A stretch of DNA of 64,000 bases from Candidatus Thorarchaeota archaeon (GTDB lineage: Archaea > Asgardarchaeota > Thorarchaeia > Thorarchaeales > Thorarchaeaceae), in contig JAGSHN010000031.1 in NCBI GenBank assembly GCA_029855935.1, positions 73,650-137,649 of the forward strand, written 5' to 3'. Below the pieces are notes generated by a model. The model had not been told where the DNA came from and made no database searches. It saw nothing but the letters and a program-made list of their open reading frames with translations. This document shows, one piece after another, positions 17,258-35,715 of the stretch. The position numbers and the translations under genes are program-made. How positions within the stretch are numbered: the stretch's first letter is position 1; every line of letters starts with the position of its first letter.

Positions 17258-19882
17258 TTGCTCATAGTTCAGGACACCAAAACCAATGATGTCATTCGTA
17301 TCATCACAGTTGACGCACTCGTGCAGCTCGGCGAGGTCCGGGCAGGCAAACACGTCAGGAGATTCGACCCTCAGAGGCTCTTGGGATATTTCCGTGCGGT
17401 CAATGATCACCTGCTCAGCTTCGCGAGCAGGTACGGCGATGCCTATCGGTATCTCCCCCTTCGCAACCGCCCGAATCCATCTGCGGCCCCATTGATTGGC
17501 GATTTGTATGAGGGTACAACCGATATTGCTCGTAGCTGGCTGGTGGACCTCTTTCTCGTGGCGCCTCTTGTGAAAGTGGGGGACATTGTACTACCTTCGA
17601 ACCAGCAGACATCCAACGTACGCCTGGCCAGAAACTGGTGCCTGATGTCACAGCACTCGTCACGACTCTACGTCGCTCAAGACCTCCGACAGGGACGGGT
17701 AGATGACCCCGGCTGGGTCACCTTTGTGACAGCCTCTGATCTGTCTGGCGGGCACAGCAGCATCAGTACCCGAGCATTGACCACAGCGATAGAGAGGAAC
17801 AGTCCGCTCATAGTCTCGCTGAGTGGAACAGAAGACGTCGACACACTACTGGAATGGCTCGTTAGGCTGAGAGAGGGTCACGCCGACACGCCACGGCTGA
17901 TGTTTCACATTCGCTCATACGAGGAGTGGGAAGGATCCATCGGGAGACTGCTCGACATTCCAAAGTCAATGCTGCTGACAAGCGGAGCGACCATCACACG
18001 CCTGTCAGAGGTCATCAGATATCTACGTAGGCACGACGGCGGAGACTGGTCCCGCAGACTCGTCTTCGCAAGCGCCTATCCTGAAACTCAATCGGGTGAC
18101 AGCATTCCCGAGATCCTGAGTTTTCTGCTGAGCAAGAGCCTTTCAGCGACTCCACTGGACCTTCACAGAATTCTGGGTGGAAATCTGCTGGGAATGCTAC
18201 CACCACGGCCCACATTCCTCAGACTTGCGGACTCAAAGGCGTCGGTGGTAATGGAAGCCACACTCGGCCGGCTGGGACTACGCGAGATAACGAGATTTCT
18301 CAAGGTACTTCTCCGTGGCGACCGTGTGGGCCTAGTCTCAGTGGACTTCATGGTGACGAAGGAGGGCCGGGTGTCAACCTCAGATGCTGTGCTGACACTT
18401 GCGGACATCTACGAGAGCACAGCAAGGGCCTTCGCCCTGTGCACAGAGAGGGATGGCACCTTGATAGCCACAGGATGGCGTGGTTCGTTTGAGGAGGTTC
18501 TAGAGGAACGGGACGATGACACCTTCAGGACAATAGTACGTTCCACTGCGTCATCAGAGGCAACAGTGTTCGACTCTCCAGCCCATCTCAACCAGCTCGG
18601 AGCGATGCTCGTGCGTTTCCTTGGGCTGTCGGAGGCCAATGCCGTTCTCTCAGCACTTCACTACAGAGTCAGCGTGCGGCACAGCTCACCAGGCATGGTA
18701 TTGATGGCACCCGAGGACCTCAGCGCACTCGGAATAGCCAGCGGCGAGAGAGCAATCATACTTCACAGTGGAACCCGGCAGTGGTGGGGAGGCACTGTCA
18801 GAGAACTCAACACGATTCCCAGGCATGAGGTCGGCATAAGTGACAGAGAAGCGGGCCTCTTCGGCGCGAATGAGGGCACCTCTGTCGATGTCGTTAGATG
18901 TCAGATGACACCACAGACATTGGAGGAGCTCGTCATCGGTTTTGAGAGAAGCGACGGGCACGTATCGATCGAGGATGATGCCTACCTGTACATGCATCAT
19001 CAGGCAATTCGGCAGCGACTGGAGGGGGCAATGGTTGGCATCGGCACGCGCCTCAATGTCTTTCCGACCGACACCACGATTAGGGCCTCAGTCATCGCCA
19101 CTGAGCCGCCGTTGATGCCCGGTCAGCTTGGGAGAGTCACTGAAGAGACCCGTATCCAGACGGTCCCGGTCCCGCTGCTTCGCGAGATGAACGTGGTCCT
19201 ATGTATCATCAGCCATGGACATACCAGTGAGGCCACCCTCCCTGTGGAGGATCCAATGTCAATAAGACGACGCCTCGAGCCGCTTCAGCAGGTGGTCCCC
19301 AGGTTCTCTGAGATAGGCGAGAGGATAGAGCGTACGGTCGACCGCCGCAGCGCGACCGTCATAGCCGGGTTGCTAATCCTCTCAGCCCTGAGTCAGAACC
19401 GTTCGCAGGGACGCTTGGCTCTCATTCGCGGGGGTGAGCGTGTCGAGAGATTCGGAATACAGAAAGGGCAGTTGGTGAAGCATTTTGCAGAATTCGAAGA
19501 TGACCTCTCCACACAGGAGATACTGCACTCAATCGTGGCCTCTATCGTGGAGTTGGCCGGGGGGCAGGACACCTACTCTCCGGACGAGGACTTGTACCAG
19601 GCCATCGCCGAGACCCTCTATGAGATGGGCGATGATATGCCGACAATGGTGATCGTACTGTCCGACACGAGGCCCAATCCTAGCGATGATGCCGAGGTGT
19701 TCCTCCGTGCCATTGCAACGCACAAGAGATACACGATAGACTGGTTGACGCTCGGGGCTGAGGAGCAGCCAACGCCGGGAGAACGGCTGATGAAACTGAT
19801 CAACAGCAGGATATTCGTGCTGGCGCAGCTCTCTGCTCGGGAGATCTTGGCCTATCTCCTGACCGCGGTACAATACCGATGA
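17258..19882 (+). CDS. Multidomain protein: inactive amidohydrolase-like barrel + Cdc48/NSF N-domain + vWA-like domain
   Basis: VDALVQLG / RLVFASAYP / ILGGN; VLMAPEDLSALGIASGE...VIATEP...VTEETRI; VIVLSD. Confidence 0.62.
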   Translation: MLIVQDTKTNDVIRIITVDALVQLGEVRAGKHVRRFDPQRLLGYFRAVNDHLLSFASRYGDAYRYLPLRNRPNPSAAPLIGDLYEGTTDIARSWLVDLFLVAPLVKVGDIVLPSNQQTSNVRLARNWCLMSQHSSRLYVAQDLRQGRVDDPGWVTFVTASDLSGGHSSISTRALTTAIERNSPLIVSLSGTEDVDTLLEWLVRLREGHADTPRLMFHIRSYEEWEGSIGRLLDIPKSMLLTSGATITRLSEVIRYLRRHDGGDWSRRLVFASAYPETQSGDSIPEILSFLLSKSLSATPLDLHRILGGNLLGMLPPRPTFLRLADSKASVVMEATLGRLGLREITRFLKVLLRGDRVGLVSVDFMVTKEGRVSTSDAVLTLADIYESTARAFALCTERDGTLIATGWRGSFEEVLEERDDDTFRTIVRSTASSEATVFDSPAHLNQLGAMLVRFLGLSEANAVLSALHYRVSVRHSSPGMVLMAPEDLSALGIASGERAIILHSGTRQWWGGTVRELNTIPRHEVGISDREAGLFGANEGTSVDVVRCQMTPQTLEELVIGFERSDGHVSIEDDAYLYMHHQAIRQRLEGAMVGIGTRLNVFPTDTTIRASVIATEPPLMPGQLGRVTEETRIQTVPVPLLREMNVVLCIISHGHTSEATLPVEDPMSIRRRLEPLQQVVPRFSEIGERIERTVDRRSATVIAGLLILSALSQNRSQGRLALIRGGERVERFGIQKGQLVKHFAEFEDDLSTQEILHSIVASIVELAGGQDTYSPDEDLYQAIAETLYEMGDDMPTMVIVLSDTRPNPSDDAEVFLRAIATHKRYTIDWLTLGAEEQPTPGERLMKLINSRIFVLAQLSAREILAYLLTAVQYR

Positions 19883-20431: not shown

Positions 20432-20983
20432 CTATATCCTTTGCAGCGATCGCAGGAGCTCTCTTGTCTCCGAAGACTCACGCGGTACTGGGTCAACGAC
20501 TATACCTGGCTCGTATGTTTCGATGATGACCTCTACGCCTGAGTCGCGTACTCGCTTGAAGCCTCTCTTTGACAGGGCACGTACAGTCAGCGTGGTAGTG
20601 TCGAATTGTGTCTTCCCCGTCGCCTGCCCCACGGCTGCATCATGCCTGAGCCGACTTCTCAACATTCTGACCTGTTCTTTCAGCTCGGCAACGCGGACCT
20701 GAAGCTCGTTTCTCTCCTCTGTCACGCGCCGCTCGGCCTCAAGCAGCGCCTCATAGTCCTTCATCGGGACAAACTCCTCGCTTCGATCGATCCAATACAC
20801 TGTTGTGCCGTCTTGTCGGCGCCTGGTACGTACGAGCCCGAGAGCCCTCAATACTGCAATGACATCATAGACTCGCCGCTTGGGGACGCCTATCGTCAGG
20901 GCAATAATGTCACTCCGGATGCCCTCGTCCCCGCACTCCTTTATGAGACTGATGCACTTCTGGGCCAACTCAACGAGCTTCAC
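20432..20983 (-). CDS. E2F/DP-family winged-helix transcription factor-like protein
   Basis: KRRVYDVIAVLRALGLV...W signature, following heptad coiled coil; GTG 20983 preceded by GAGGTG SD. Confidence 0.85.
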   Translation of the reverse strand: MKLVELAQKCISLIKECGDEGIRSDIIALTIGVPKRRVYDVIAVLRALGLVRTRRRQDGTTVYWIDRSEEFVPMKDYEALLEAERRVTEERNELQVRVAELKEQVRMLRSRLRHDAAVGQATGKTQFDTTTLTVRALSKRGFKRVRDSGVEVIIETYEPGIVVDPVPRESSETRELLRSLQRI

Positions 20984-21079
20984 AGTTGCACCTCGGTGGA
21001 GAATCCTGCATGATCTCATATGGAGAGAAGGTGGTCCCCCTACTGCCGAACTCTGTCTTAAGTGTTTGTATTATCCTGT

Positions 21080-21136
21080 CGATTTTTCGCGGTTCCGATT
21101 TTTCGAGAGGCGTATTCGGCCCACTGTGGCGCGAGA
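21080..21136. promoter_or_regulatory. Direct repeat CGATTTTTCG (21080-21089, 21096-21105) and E2F-consensus-like sites TTTTTCGCGG (21083-21092) and TGTGGCGCGAGA (21125-21136)
   Basis: Read directly from the divergent intergenic region upstream of the E2F-like gene. Confidence 0.45.
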
Positions 21137-21214
21137 TAGCAGCACCGACAATTTGATAACATACAGTCAGGGGCCGTCAGTTGCTTGAAACGCAACAGAG
21201 CGGCGGCGATAGTG

Positions 21215-22549
21215 ATGAAAAGAAAGAGAGTAATCATAATGGGTGCTGCTGGCCGAGACTTCCACAACTTCAACGTGTACTTTCGTGACAACGAGGAGTA
21301 CGAAGTTGTGGCCTTCACGGCAGAACAGATCCCCGGAATAGAGGACAGAATCTATCCCCCTGAACTCTCCGGAAGACTGTATCCTGAGGGCATCAAGATA
21401 TACCCTGAGGAGAAACTGCCCGAACTGGTCCAGAAGTATCAGCCAGAGCAGTGCATTCTTGCGTATTCCGACCTGTCGCACATAACGGTCGGACATAAGA
21501 TAGCGTGGGTGAACTCCCTAGGCCCCGACATGCGTCTGATGGGGCCGACGACAACTATGCTGAAGAGCAAGAAACCGGTCATTGCTGTATGTGCCATCCG
21601 GACAGGCTGCGGAAAGAGCCAGACCTCACGCAGAGTCAACAAGATACTCGTAGATATGGGGCTCAAGCCAGTCAATGTCAGGCATCCCATGCCCTACGAC
21701 CCGGATCTGACCACACAGATAGCGCAGAGGTTCGAAACACTGGAGGATATGGACAGGTACCGCTGCACGATTGAAGAGCGGGAGGAGTATGAGCCCATGA
21801 TAAACATGGGTGTCGTGGTCTATGCTGGGGTGGACTATGCAAAGATCCTTGAGCAGGCGGAGCAAGAGGCAGACATCATCACATGGGACGGCGGAAACAA
21901 CGACTTCCCCTTCTACAAGCCCGACCTGCTCATCACGGTCGTCGATCCGCACAGGGCCGGTCACGAGGTGACGTATTATCCGGGTGAGACCAATCTCAGG
22001 ATGGCGGACGTGATCATAATCAATAAGGTCGAAACCGCCGACTATGAGAACATAGAGAAGGTCAGACGGAATATCGAGGCGCTCAACCCCGATGCTGTGG
22101 TCATCGACGCAGCCTCACCAGTCCGTGTCGAGGACATAAGCGTCATCAGAGGCAAGCGTGTGCTCGTCATCGAAGATGGCCCGACAGTGACCCACGGTGA
22201 GATGCGGTACGGCGCGGGCTACATTGCCGCTCGCAAGGCTGGTGCCACGATTGTTGACCCACGGCCGTATGCGGTGGGCAGCATACGCGACACCTTCGAG
22301 AAGTACCGCCATCTTGAGAATGTCCTGCCAGCAATGGGTTACGGTGCCGAGCAGATGAAGGAACTTGAGGAAACAATCAACAAGGCGGATGTCGACGCCG
22401 TTGTAGTAGGTACTCCAATCGACTTGACCCGCATAATCAAGATCAACAAGCCCTCCACGAGAGTGCGCTACGATCTTCAGGAGATTGGAAGACCAGATCT
22501 TGAAGATGTCGTCAAGGAGTTCGTGGAGAAGCACGGGCTCGTCAAGTGA
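21215..22549 (+). CDS. COG2403 P-loop protein (cDPG synthetase superfamily), probable arginine synthetase ArcE type
   Basis: GAAGRDFHNFN, RTGCGKS, RHPMPY, TIEEREEYEP, WDGGNND, EDGPT, PAMGYG. Confidence 0.8.
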   Translation: MKRKRVIIMGAAGRDFHNFNVYFRDNEEYEVVAFTAEQIPGIEDRIYPPELSGRLYPEGIKIYPEEKLPELVQKYQPEQCILAYSDLSHITVGHKIAWVNSLGPDMRLMGPTTTMLKSKKPVIAVCAIRTGCGKSQTSRRVNKILVDMGLKPVNVRHPMPYDPDLTTQIAQRFETLEDMDRYRCTIEEREEYEPMINMGVVVYAGVDYAKILEQAEQEADIITWDGGNNDFPFYKPDLLITVVDPHRAGHEVTYYPGETNLRMADVIIINKVETADYENIEKVRRNIEALNPDAVVIDAASPVRVEDISVIRGKRVLVIEDGPTVTHGEMRYGAGYIAARKAGATIVDPRPYAVGSIRDTFEKYRHLENVLPAMGYGAEQMKELEETINKADVDAVVVGTPIDLTRIIKINKPSTRVRYDLQEIGRPDLEDVVKEFVEKHGLVK

Positions 22550-32359: not shown

Positions 32360-33055
32360 GTGGACACGGCCAAAGACGCTCGCATTCTCCTTGTCGAAGA
32401 TGCGCTCAATCGAATGCTCGCAGTTGTCAAGCAGCGGCGTCTGAAGACCTACCTAGACTATGCTGCTCTGGCAGCCGCACTCAATGACGCACATGGCGCC
32501 CTCTACGAGGTCAAGTATTCCTATGCCGATGCGGAGCAGGTCTTGAATCTACCAGCCACAACACGTGTCGTGGCCGCGGCAGAGGCCGTCGCCAAAGCAG
32601 TAGGCGATGCTATGAACTCGGGCTACAAGCCGGGCAGTACTGGTGAGAAACTGGCCTTGGCAGAGCTGAACTATGGAACAAGAATCATCACGGGCTTTCC
32701 AAGACGTCTGAGAAACGGTAGTGACGATCCTGGGATGGCCACCGACATAATTGCTGTCGAGACCACACAGGTGTCCGAGGTGAAGGGGTCCGAGAATCTG
32801 CTCGAGTGCAGATGCACAGACGGCTCCCGGATATGGACCGTTGTGACAAACATCAGAGAGGTGAGACCCAATATGACCCTTGCTGCAGCTGTATTGCCGC
32901 CTGCAGAGTTTATGGGAGTCATTAGTGAGGCGATGTTCCTGAGCAAGAATGTCCTCCCGGAGGGGACAGCCCTGGGAGTCATCGAGCAACCCACGCCGGA
33001 CATTCTGAAACAGGCTCGCGCACAGGTCCTTGCCATAGTAAAGAGGCTGATGTAG
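32360..33055 (+). CDS. tRNA-binding domain (Trbp111/Myf-like OB fold) protein with helical N-terminus
   Basis: VVTNI, LPPAEFMGVISEAMF. Confidence 0.8.
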   Translation: MDTAKDARILLVEDALNRMLAVVKQRRLKTYLDYAALAAALNDAHGALYEVKYSYADAEQVLNLPATTRVVAAAEAVAKAVGDAMNSGYKPGSTGEKLALAELNYGTRIITGFPRRLRNGSDDPGMATDIIAVETTQVSEVKGSENLLECRCTDGSRIWTVVTNIREVRPNMTLAAAVLPPAEFMGVISEAMFLSKNVLPEGTALGVIEQPTPDILKQARAQVLAIVKRLM

Positions 33056-33403
33056 ATGGTGGGACTGCGAGAGATACAGCAGAGACTCAGACAGTTCGAG
33101 GAGGCACGTGGATGGAACAGATTCCCCGCATCTCAGGTCTTCACTCATCTCATTGAGGAGCTGGGGGAGATATCACGGTATATAACGGTGGAGGAGGGCT
33201 ACAAGGCCATCGGGCTGGGCCATGAGGCGCCAGACAGATCGGGACTCGCAAGAGAATTCGCCCAGGTCTTTTCCCTCTTCGTTCAGCTCGCCAACCACTT
33301 TGGGATTGATCTTGAGGCCAGTGTCCTGCGTGAGATTGAGCTGATGGAGAAGAGGTTCCCGGCGCGAGAATGGCGTGAATACATGAGCGGAGAGGAAGGG
33401 TGA
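33056..33403 (+). CDS. MazG-like nucleotide pyrophosphohydrolase
   Basis: FEEARGW, LIEELGEI, LANHFGIDLE, KRFP. Confidence 0.85.
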   Translation: MVGLREIQQRLRQFEEARGWNRFPASQVFTHLIEELGEISRYITVEEGYKAIGLGHEAPDRSGLAREFAQVFSLFVQLANHFGIDLEASVLREIELMEKRFPAREWREYMSGEEG

Positions 33404-33440
33404 CTCGATAGCGCAGGCCACCTGAGGCCGTCTCAGCTAC

Positions 33441-33878
33441 TCATTTCATCTTCCGATGGGCGTCGAGTTCCTTCTTGGCCAGGTCCTCAAGGTCCTTTGT
33501 CGCGGCCAACAGGCCAAGTGCCCTGTTGCTCACTGCCTTGATGTTCTTTTCCTTTGCCCACTGCGCCAGACCAGTCACGAGCGGGCCGAGCGCAGTGCGA
33601 GCAGCCTCAACAGTGCCGACTGCCTTTCCAAGAAGCTCAAGGGCATTCTTGGGCTTGAGACGTGCCTCCGCCACACGCAACCAGACAAGAGCATGAATCA
33701 TGTAGAGTGCATCAAGCATCAGTGTTGGTGACTTCGGGTTCTCCTGAACTTTGGCGATCAGACGATTCTTACGGGTCTCGAAGACATCCTTGAACAGGTT
33801 GTAGGCCTTCTTGTAACTACCCTTGTCGAGCTCTATGATACCCTTCTGAAGCTTCTCATCGGTCTCGGACAATCGCAC
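33441..33878 (-). CDS. Hypothetical helical (TPR-like) protein
   Basis: GIIELDKGSYKKAYNLF TPR-like start; true start may be TTG 33872. Confidence 0.65.
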   Translation of the reverse strand: MRLSETDEKLQKGIIELDKGSYKKAYNLFKDVFETRKNRLIAKVQENPKSPTLMLDALYMIHALVWLRVAEARLKPKNALELLGKAVGTVEAARTALGPLVTGLAQWAKEKNIKAVSNRALGLLAATKDLEDLAKKELDAHRKMK

Positions 33879-34032
33879 GCCTCCGCCAGCCGTTTAGGTA
33901 TATGCGCAGTTCAAGATACCCACGACACTATTATGACTTTCTGCGCCGAAAGCCACCGAGAACCCGGGGCGACACAGGGACCATCAGCCAGTCTCGCGAG
34001 AGACCCAGCATATCGCTCTTGAACTCGGGAGT

Positions 34033-34040
34033 ATTTAAAT
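34033..34040 (+). promoter_or_regulatory. TATA-box-like element
   Basis: ATTTAAAT upstream of the ANL-family gene. Confidence 0.5.
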
Positions 34041-34122
34041 CACGGTACTTGAAAGTGAACAGCCACTTGGAGTGAACACGCCCAAGGCGTGTGCCACCAC
34101 ACTACCACACGGAGGATAGCGG

Positions 34123-35715
34123 ATGACCAAGACCACTCTCACGTTTCAGGAACTCAAGCGGATATCGGACCGCGAGATAAGGGAGATGCAAGATCGGAAG
34201 TTCAGGGCGTTCATCAGGTATCAAGTGTGGCCCAACCACCCCTACTACAGACATCTGTTCAAGGAGAACAACATAGACCCGTTCAATATCACCTGCATGC
34301 GAGACTGGGAGAAGTATCAGATCCCCCTTGTCCGTAAGGTCGACTACAAGGACCACATCCGGGAGTTCGTGCTCAATCCGATGGAGGAGGACGGAAAGGA
34401 ACGCGACCCTGCCAACATCGTGAAGAGTGTGATGGCCTATGCGAAGGCCTCCGGCAAGAGTGACCTGTACGCATTCCTTCGGAACAACGGTATCCGTGTG
34501 AAGCTACATATCGGCGCAGATGCGGCAATGGAACGAATCAAGGAGAGACTTGCCTATCTGTACAGCCCACTCCAGTTCTGGCTCAGTTCAGGCCGTGCCT
34601 CCGGTATGCCGGCCCCCGTATTTCTCACTCGGTACGACAATGACCTTCTGTATCGCAACTGCGTGAAGGTGGGACAGATGGCCGTCGATCCGTGGGTGGG
34701 GACCGGATGGAAGCTTGTCAGTATGAACTTGTTTCCGTACGCACCGCATCTTGGTTGGCACGCTGTCAACATGGGCCTGAAACAGATGTCCGAGTTCTAC
34801 GTGGCGACAAGCGCTGGCGGTGCAATTCCGACGCCCAAGCTCGTCGAGATTGCCAAGCTATTCAAGGTGAACGGCTTTGCAGGGATGCCCAGCTATCTCA
34901 GGAACCGCTTCTTCAGAGCGATGAAAGAGATGGACTATGAGGCCCCAGAGAAGGTGGTCGTCCTGCTGGCGGGCGAGAAGATCTATCCGCCGGTCGTGGA
35001 CGACATCGTGGACACGCTGACCAGCAAGGGTGCCAAGGAGGTCCGTGTCGTCGGCGGCTATGCGTCGTCGGAGAGTAAGATCTCGTTCGCTGTGCAGTGC
35101 TCCTACGAAGGTCCATACCACAATGTCAGTCCTCTGATTCTCTCATTCGAGTTCGTCCGGGTCAATGACGATGGTTCGTGGGAGTTTGTGGACGACGACG
35201 AGCCGGGTCACGTGACGCTCTTCCATCTCGACGGCACTGGCACGGTCTTTGAGGGATTCCTGCTTGGTGACATCTCAAGTCGCCACGAGCGGGGTTGCTG
35301 CCCGATCTGCGGAATGGAGGGACCCTTCTTCTGGGACATCGGCCGACAGAACGACGTTGAGGCCCAGATCGACATAATGGGCATCAGCGAGAAGAAGATC
35401 AAGGGGGCAACAGTCAATCTCACAGCGCTGAGGACCGACCTGTTGAGCATAGACGGCATAGAGGAGCTCCAGATAGAGATTGCAAAGGAGGACCCCAACG
35501 ACCCCTACAGCATGGATGTCCTCAACATCTATGTCGCGTTGTACGGTGGGGCCGAAGGACGGAGAGACGAGATAGTCAGAGAGGTGCAGCAGGTGACTAA
35601 GAATGCTGCCGAGATCACTCCGCGCGTATTTGTCATATCCTTCGAGGAGCTGATCGAGCGAAGCGGTGGAATGAAGTTCATGGAGATCAGCGACGTCAGA
35701 CCCCGCCCCGCATAG
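34123..35715 (+). CDS. Phenylacetate-CoA ligase/F390 synthetase-like adenylate-forming (ANL) enzyme
   Basis: HPYYR, IPLVRK, SSG-x2-SG-x-P, LAGE, GYASSE, LGD, KIKGATV. Confidence 0.75.
   Translation: MTKTTLTFQELKRISDREIREMQDRKFRAFIRYQVWPNHPYYRHLFKENNIDPFNITCMRDWEKYQIPLVRKVDYKDHIREFVLNPMEEDGKERDPANIVKSVMAYAKASGKSDLYAFLRNNGIRVKLHIGADAAMERIKERLAYLYSPLQFWLSSGRASGMPAPVFLTRYDNDLLYRNCVKVGQMAVDPWVGTGWKLVSMNLFPYAPHLGWHAVNMGLKQMSEFYVATSAGGAIPTPKLVEIAKLFKVNGFAGMPSYLRNRFFRAMKEMDYEAPEKVVVLLAGEKIYPPVVDDIVDTLTSKGAKEVRVVGGYASSESKISFAVQCSYEGPYHNVSPLILSFEFVRVNDDGSWEFVDDDEPGHVTLFHLDGTGTVFEGFLLGDISSRHERGCCPICGMEGPFFWDIGRQNDVEAQIDIMGISEKKIKGATVNLTALRTDLLSIDGIEELQIEIAKEDPNDPYSMDVLNIYVALYGGAEGRRDEIVREVQQVTKNAAEITPRVFVISFEELIERSGGMKFMEISDVRPRPA

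Follow-up and report, generated by a model that had tools for sequence, protein, structure and literature searches.

The locus and its divergent gene pair

The window, i.e. the whole stretch of 64,000 nucleotides that was analysed, stems from a thorarchaeotal genome of 2.97 Mb with a G+C content of 55.7%. Positions 21057-21160 are intergenic DNA between two genes that point away from each other, a gene for an E2F-like regulator on the minus strand and a GTPase gene on the plus strand. As judged from its sequence, this region is a shared control region of the two divergently transcribed genes (Table 1). The pairing is retained in 60 of 66 Thorarchaeota loci. The product of the GTPase gene resembles cyclic 2,3-diphosphoglycerate synthetase-like proteins, and its atlas neighbours carry the name 'putative GTPase / cyclic 2,3-diphosphoglycerate synthetase'. 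Three sets of orthologous loci serve for comparison, taken from 19 genomes of the same family, 17 non-redundant intergenic regions, and 66 Thorarchaeota records; the loci counted come from related genomes and hence do not represent independent samples.

The start of the E2F-like gene has been moved to the GTG at 20983, since both the start of the orthologues and a Shine-Dalgarno sequence are conserved there. In the alignment all orthologues begin with MKLV, and GGGGTGC or GAGGTGC lies five bases upstream of the GTG in nearly all of them. An open reading frame can also be read from the ATG at 21019, yet the 36 extra bases (20984-21019) are 5' leader that includes the Shine-Dalgarno sequence. 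Small ORFs overlapping the control region were considered and rejected, as this region is conserved in blocks, with indels of roughly 10 bp, and not in a codon-like manner. A search of 20800-21400 for known RNA families gave nothing credible, its one weak match (E 0.52) falling far below the gathering score.

Table 1. Features of the regulator/GTPase locus (positions in the window)
Feature	Position	Strand	Basis
E2F/DP-family winged-helix regulator gene, 183 aa	20432..20983	-	Pfam E2F_TDP, orthologue alignment
Shine-Dalgarno GAGGTG, 5 nt before the GTG start	20989..20994	-	orthologue conservation
box1, promoter block of the E2F-like gene: CTTAAG + TGTTTGTATTAT	21057..21074	-	conserved in 19/19 family loci
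Proximal operator site (candidate) TCGATTTTTCG(C)	21079..21090		top shared k-mers, fixed distance to box1
Second operator site (candidate) CCGATTTTTCGA, 16 bp from the first	21095..21106		exact repeat
TGTGGCGCGAGA, second 'E2F site' of the sequence-only reading	21125..21136		not conserved; chance match
box2, promoter block of the GTPase gene: ACCGACAATTTGATAAC	21144..21160	+	recognisable in 18/19 family loci
P-loop GTPase gene, CobW/HypB/UreG kind	21215..22549	+	Pfam cobW, 28.9 bits

Promoter blocks

An earlier reading of this DNA, made from the sequence only, had pointed out TATA-like elements at 21057-21062 (CTTAAG) and 21151-21160 (ATTTGATAAC). Both are present, and both turn out to lie in conserved blocks that represent the promoter cores of the two divergent genes. 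This assignment follows from their positions, which fit a genome-wide count in which TATA-like words peak 51-60 nt before start codons.

The block of the regulator gene, box1, reads TATTTAG in most orthologues, followed by TGTTTGTGTTGT. In the window, CTTAAG takes the first place, and the adjoining TGTTTGTATTAT (21063-21074) comprises, on the minus strand, the BRE-like part ACAAACA and further conserved bases. Box1 is kept in all 19 family loci, 66-84 bp from the start codon of the regulator, and in most of the 66 Thorarchaeota loci, too. The block of the GTPase gene, box2 (ACCGACAATTTCTTAAC), combines a BRE-like CCGACA with a TATA-like part; 18 of the 19 family loci have it at a distance of 67-80 bp from the start codon of the GTPase gene. 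The distance between the two blocks ranges from 72 to 198 bp in this family. As a caveat, the sequence-only reading had noted that CGAAA on the minus strand resembles archaeal BRE elements; across the genome this word shows a mild excess 60-100 nt before start codons, but the motif discussed below does not abut the TATA box.

A conserved array of quasi-palindromic sites

The 10-bp direct repeat that had been described between the two promoter blocks is confirmed, with CGATTTTTCG at 21080-21089 and 21096-21105 in an exact 16-bp period. In an unbiased count of k-mers shared by the 17 non-redundant regions, pieces of CGATTTTTCGA rank first, being found in 13-15 regions, whereas Markov simulations reach 6-7 at most; next in rank are the promoter blocks of both genes and the Shine-Dalgarno sequence. 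The array recurs in practically all of the 66 Thorarchaeota loci examined; homologues from outside the Thorarchaeota family showed no CGATTTTTCG arrangement in their upstream DNA.

In the site proximal to box1, two (T)CG(A) cores with a spacing of 8 bp flank a T-tract, and TTTTTCGCGG, quoted in the sequence-only reading, overlaps the 3' half of this site. With at most one mismatch, the site occurs 16-18 bp after the start of box1 (27 bp in one locus) in 16 of the 19 family loci, always in the same orientation, leaving a gap of 4-6 bp between the end of box1 and the proximal CGATTTTTCG(A). When box1 is placed automatically, a site of at least 9 PWM bits is located 14-30 bp behind it in 44 of the 66 loci. 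Since the proximal site is locked to box1 while the distance between box1 and box2 varies, the array is assigned to the promoter of the E2F-like gene.

One to three further copies follow at centre-to-centre distances of 16 (the genus of the window), 26, 36 or 56 bp, as well as at sums such as 42 and 62 bp; 40 of 66 distances from the proximal site equal 16, 26, 36-37 or 56-57 bp, and weaker sites are found 8 bp beside strong ones. As the spacing classes differ between genera, the phase has survived separate indels, and the discrete spacings suggest that helical phasing was preserved through these events. The T-run of the further copies faces either way at the same spacing, which suggests that the binder reads a symmetric CGA-N4-TCG. 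In several genera, an extra conserved element, GATAAC-N8-10-ATTATT, lies between the two operator sites; it is missing from the genus of the window, whose intergenic region is shorter.

A weight matrix built from 31 sites (tCGATTTTTCGAaag) has its most informative positions in the T-run, and its two CpG steps are about equally informative. The weight of the T-run would also fit a promoter architecture that needs no dedicated protein, in which phased A/T tracts bend the DNA upstream of the TATA box in a UP-like manner. The location just upstream of the promoter and spacing classes about one helical turn apart point in the same direction. This explanation is nevertheless quite improbable: conservation of the flanking CpG dinucleotides equals that of the tract, the orientation of the T-run is free, spacings of half-integer turns (16, 26, 36 bp) would cancel curvature, and the motif is rare in the promoters of this genome. 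The array probably represents functional protein-binding sites of a regulator, a view held with high confidence. What is found here is a conserved symmetric cis-element in the promoter region of a factor's own gene, as would be expected of an autoregulatory operator.

E2F-type words in this genome

In the sequence-only reading, two stretches of the control region were taken for E2F sites. Their letters are correct: all quoted strings are found where they had been placed, including TTTTTCGCGG at 21083-21092, and TTTCGCGG at 21085-21092 fits the canonical E2F consensus (TTTSSCGS / TTTSGCGCSAAA). Likewise, TGTGGCGCGAGA at 21125-21136 agrees with the classical DHFR site TTTGGCGCGAAA in 10 of 12 positions. 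The counts give these words no signal. TTTSSCGS occurs 9 times in the window (9.17 expected), hence the expected enrichment over background is absent. Matches of at least 10/12 to TTTGGCGCGAAA number 5 in the window, with 2.6 expected and 13 of 100 shuffles reaching 5. Genome-wide, no intergenic enrichment is seen either: with coding DNA delimited by crude gene calls of our own, TTTSSCGS has a density of 0.156 per kb there and of 0.091 per kb in intergenic DNA.

Conservation upstream of orthologues, which a shared E2F-type specificity would entail, fails in the same way. TTTSSCGS is found in 2 of the 17 regions (1.14 expected, P = 0.33) and in 2 of the 66 Thorarchaeota loci. The word CGCG occurs in 7 of the 17 orthologous regions (7.65 expected), and SGCGCS is present in 2 of the 17 regions and in 5 of the 66 loci, where 7.4 are expected. 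TGGCGCGA is restricted to this genome among the 17 regions, and neither the CGCGG flank nor TGTGGCGCGAGA is conserved in the 17 regions or the 66 loci. By these comparisons, the first 'E2F site' is made up of the conserved site and an adjoining CGCGG flank that only this lineage has. The stretch at 21125-21136 was rejected as an E2F site and is judged a chance match, being not conserved and belonging to a class of 10/12 matches that is at chance level in the window.

That the repeats are eukaryote-type E2F boxes (TTTSSCGS with a GCGC or CGCG core), by which the E2F-like protein autoregulates with conserved specificity, is therefore a highly improbable reading, and for this genome the lack of conservation largely refutes it. 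It could draw on the two matches described above, on the RRxYD motif retained by the protein, and on the GGCGCC or TTTGGCGG words upstream of E2F-like genes in other Asgard lineages. Against it stand the window counts at chance level, the lack of intergenic enrichment, and CGCG-bearing flanks that are not conserved next to a conserved word without a GCGC core. The supposed conservation of the eukaryotic DNA specificity has to be given up, as CGATTTTTCG(A) lacks that core, and the resemblance to eukaryotic E2F sites is, on the comparative counts, a chance and lineage-specific overlap; the tempting textbook match in this genome is an accident. A part of the original proposal holds: the region is regulatory DNA of an E2F/DP-family gene, it contains a conserved repeat, and autoregulation is plausible, but the sites are not E2F-consensus sites.

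A search for a GCGC-type regulon in this genome yielded two intergenic TTGGCGCCAA palindromes (contig 15 at 19443 and contig 12 at 91428), whose contexts are uninformative. The former (19443-19454) is a perfect 12-bp palindrome of E2F type, TTTGGCGCCAAA, and lies in a 544-bp stretch between convergent ORFs that resembles decayed coding sequence; no promoter context is evident around it. An ORB-like word near this palindrome is present in a single copy. On contig 17 (about 154840-154880), GTTCCAGTGGAAAC is followed by GAAGGGG, a combination which we take to resemble an archaeal origin-recognition-box (ORB) with its G-string and which presumably could mark a replication origin.

The E2F/DP-like regulator

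The eukaryote-like proteins that have been reported for Asgard archaea include homologues of E2F (PMC7617429, citing Spang 2015, Zaremba-Niedzwiedzka 2017). In the searchable literature, no description of their DNA sites or targets was found. The regulator encoded here scores 36.4 bits against Pfam E2F_TDP (PF02319, cut-off 25.7), whereas TrmB, at 21.7 bits, stays under its cut-off of 25.6. Its best PDB match by sequence is the DNA-binding domain of E2F-4 (1cf7_A, E 0.002), aligned over the KRRVYD helix. R36, R37, Y39 and D40 (RRxYD), together with an Arg and a Trp of the wing, are invariant in 22 orthologues, and RRxYD is also retained in distant Asgard homologues. By these sequence criteria, the regulator is a bona fide E2F/DP-family winged-helix-turn-helix (wHTH) protein.

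The structure is predicted with a mean pLDDT of 83.8 and comprises a confident wHTH, a coiled-coil helix (residues 74-115) and a beta-rich C-terminal domain of four strands and a helix. In a Foldseek search against the PDB, 1cf7_A is matched with a TM score of 0.77, an rmsd of 2.1 A and 31% identity (the highest among the top matches), and no match reaches E 0.001. Z-alpha, ArsR and MarR chains rank equal to or above 1cf7_A, so E2F is not singled out by structure.

When two copies are predicted together, ipSAE amounts to 0.54, versus 0.00 for the best of three controls; runs agree in at least 94% of the contacts, and the partner has a pLDDT of at least 80. Of proteins with solved structures, 20 of 30 determined as pairs and 1 of 23 determined as single chains attain this mark. 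Predicted contacts comprise a parallel, in-register coiled coil (94:94, 98:98, 101:101) and contacts between the C-terminal domains; in addition, the DNA-binding domains touch (residues 2-11 and 39-50), as they do in E2F-DP. The prediction supports a homodimer, though its result may stem from the solved E2F-DP complex being known to the model and would then show likeness only.

Candidate binder and mode of action

Among five flanking ORFs scanned against Pfam, the E2F-like protein is the only DNA-binding protein recognised, which makes its homodimer the obvious candidate binder. The proposal favoured here, at about even odds, is that the array serves as an upstream operator to which a symmetric dimer binds cooperatively, most plausibly the homodimeric E2F-like protein, resulting in autoregulation. 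The array between the promoter blocks consists of two copies of a quasi-palindromic (T)CGA-TTTT-TCG(A). From an activator-type position, the E2F-like homodimer, proposed as binder from its adjacency, would control its own promoter and perhaps that of the GTPase gene. The Arg-Arg pair of the RRxYD helix might recognise the guanines of each CpG core while the wing contacts the A/T tract in the minor groove; such a specificity would be distinct from that of eukaryotic E2F, whose sites have a contiguous GCGC core. Measured from centre to centre, the proximal site would be about 25 bp upstream of the TATA element and near -50 relative to a transcription start deduced from the TATA position. With starts set by the usual archaeal TATA-to-start distance, the two sites of the window are centred near -51 and -67 for the regulator and near -96 and -80 for the GTPase. 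As both sites are upstream of both TATA boxes, they would not be transcribed.

Some features fit this mechanism less well. Asgard lineages with GGCGCC or TTTGGCGG boxes have the very same RRxYD helix, which counts against the E2F-like protein as binder, and nothing was found in the sequence of the thorarchaeotal protein that would explain a changed specificity. In the predicted dimer, the touching DNA-binding domains would leave less distance between the Arg pairs than the 8 bp that separate the CpG cores, and a contiguous palindrome would fit better. Finally, the motif is also found in front of an unrelated small-RNA promoter, so it could define the regulon of another factor with the E2F-like gene as a mere target.

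A second conserved promoter with the same motif

The exact 10-mer CGATTTTTCG occurs in 6 copies in the genome, 5 of them outside ORFs. At a threshold of at least 16 PWM bits, the matrix has 8 matches genome-wide, of which 7 are intergenic, and they occur in pairs; a search for a CGATTTTTCG regulon in this genome did not go beyond these approximately eight strong matches. For the sites on contigs 11 and 29, no clear link to a gene was seen. Those on contig 29 belong to an ORF-poor stretch of 1.7 kb (32817-34582) with three strong CGATTTTTCG-type matches (at 32953, 32960 and 33561), one of which is about 25-35 nt from TATA-like words of the minus strand.

On contig 21, a further CGATTTTTCG-type pair is flanked by a tRNA gene and by a strong TATA box, GGATTTATAGG, which precedes a conserved, structured stretch of about 100 nt. 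Among 24 orthologous small-RNA loci, 15 have a matrix match at -230 to -365 from the neighbouring gene, with about 0.06 expected per region. Taken together, the conservation at both loci indicates that the motif marks at least two conserved promoters. The candidate small RNA itself (contig 21, 259779-260030), about 100 nt long and downstream of the tRNA gene with two CGATTTTTCG-type sites upstream, has a core, CCCTCCCGGCGGAG, and a long-range helix with compensatory changes across Thorarchaeota (CG 7, UA 6 at one pair). Its minimum free energy is about -47 kcal/mol (130-nt stretch folded). No Rfam family matches this small RNA, and the tRNA is all that is recognised at the locus.

The array might consequently be the operator of a different, unlinked transcription factor, with the E2F-like and the small-RNA genes in its small regulon, an explanation regarded as somewhat unlikely. 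It would account for the motif's presence at another conserved promoter, one without relation to the E2F-like gene, and at a few further non-coding positions, and for a recognition helix that is unchanged relative to lineages with GCGC-type boxes. One genome of the family (91% complete) is also in line with it, having motif-like sites at the small-RNA locus while no E2F-like gene was found with the query used. However, no candidate for such a factor was identified, the sole regulator recognised at the locus is the E2F-like protein, and the array is locked to the promoter of its gene throughout the group; moreover, it is ordinary for a regulator to control a second promoter as well. The homodimeric E2F-like protein stays the preferred binder, and the locus supplies a testable candidate system composed of an 11-bp site, an array geometry, and a second target promoter.

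Relation to known regulatory systems

With eukaryotic E2F-DP and its sites (TTTSGCGCS; E2F4-DP2-DNA, PDB 1cf7), the system shares an RRxYD wHTH, a coiled coil and a beta-rich domain, as well as a dimer, here a predicted one. The location in the factor's own upstream region, with CpG steps beside a T-run, recalls E2F autoregulation in eukaryotes. The thorarchaeotal sites differ in that they have no GCGC or CGCG core and carry their CpG cores 8 bp apart instead of in a contiguous palindrome. Furthermore, 2-4 sites form an array at 16, 26, 36 or 56 bp, and the binder is presumed to be a homodimer and not a heterodimer.

In archaea, activators such as Ptr2 (Methanocaldococcus) and TFB-RF1 (Pyrococcus) bind just upstream of BRE/TATA, and recruitment of TBP or TFB is a known mechanism. 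Their sites resemble those described here in being palindromic and centred roughly 20-40 bp upstream of the TATA box; the proteins differ, being of Lrp/AsnC or other families and not E2F/DP wHTH proteins, and activation is putative in the present case. Autoregulated wHTH proteins of the MarR, TrmB or ArsR type are comparable in their divergent gene pairs with symmetric operators in the shared intergenic region and in the dimer, predicted here, and the structural search scores these families similarly to E2F. By sequence, the protein falls into E2F_TDP, above threshold, and not into TrmB (below threshold) or MarR, and no ligand-binding domain is recognised in it. An operator array in front of a regulator gene is of an ordinary kind; new are the particular motif, its phased geometry, and the association with an E2F-family gene.

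Candidate E2F-type boxes in other Asgard lineages

For this genome, the idea of E2F-type boxes in front of archaeal E2F-like genes does not apply; preliminary backing for it comes from other Asgard lineages, in the form of GGCGCC and TTTGGCGG. E2F-type words are present in 17 of 54 upstream regions from outside Thorarchaeota, compared with 6.5 expected and a maximum of 13 in 300 simulations, counts that are inflated by relatedness within families. In A+T-rich Asgard lineages, upstream DNA is about 4.7-fold richer in such words than the rest of the same loci.

If it holds, the contrast between these boxes and the thorarchaeotal sites bears on an E2F recognition code predating eukaryotes. In a wider, rather doubtful scenario, Asgard E2F/DP-like proteins would be autoregulated homodimers; Baldr-, Heimdall- and related lineages would have kept an ancestral GCGC core as GGCGCC or TTTGGCGG(GAAA), and Thorarchaeota would have been re-tuned to split TCGA-N4-TCGA in phased arrays. 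Were this true, both the protein-DNA code of E2F and its feedback loop would predate eukaryogenesis, and the thorarchaeotal protein would provide a natural example of a specificity change with an unchanged RRxYD helix.

A larger TTTGGCGG regulon in Heimdall-like genomes was considered and rejected: the 2-3-fold excess of the word over a reversed control is coding bias, as each of the 21 sampled sites falls within an open frame of 100 codons or more. In one Heimdall-like genome, the 12-mer TTTGGCGGGAAA occurs nowhere but upstream of the E2F-like gene. Its uniqueness, along with the coding bias behind the TTTGGCGG excess, suggests that the box belongs to the upstream region of this gene itself rather than to a large regulon.

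The individual boxes take several forms. Three genomes labelled Baldr or Odin have GGCGCC within an imperfect palindrome at about -130 of E2F-like genes. In another family GGCGCC is found at -224 of the E2F-like gene, and in two genomes at -22. Five Heimdall-like loci carry TTTGGCGG, once as TTTGGCGGGAAA, at -59 to -173. A perfect AAATTGGCGCCAAAT palindrome precedes an E2F-like paralogue at one Asgard locus outside Thorarchaeota, and GACGCGCGAC/GTCGCGCG inverted repeats are located upstream of E2F-like genes at three Asgard loci.
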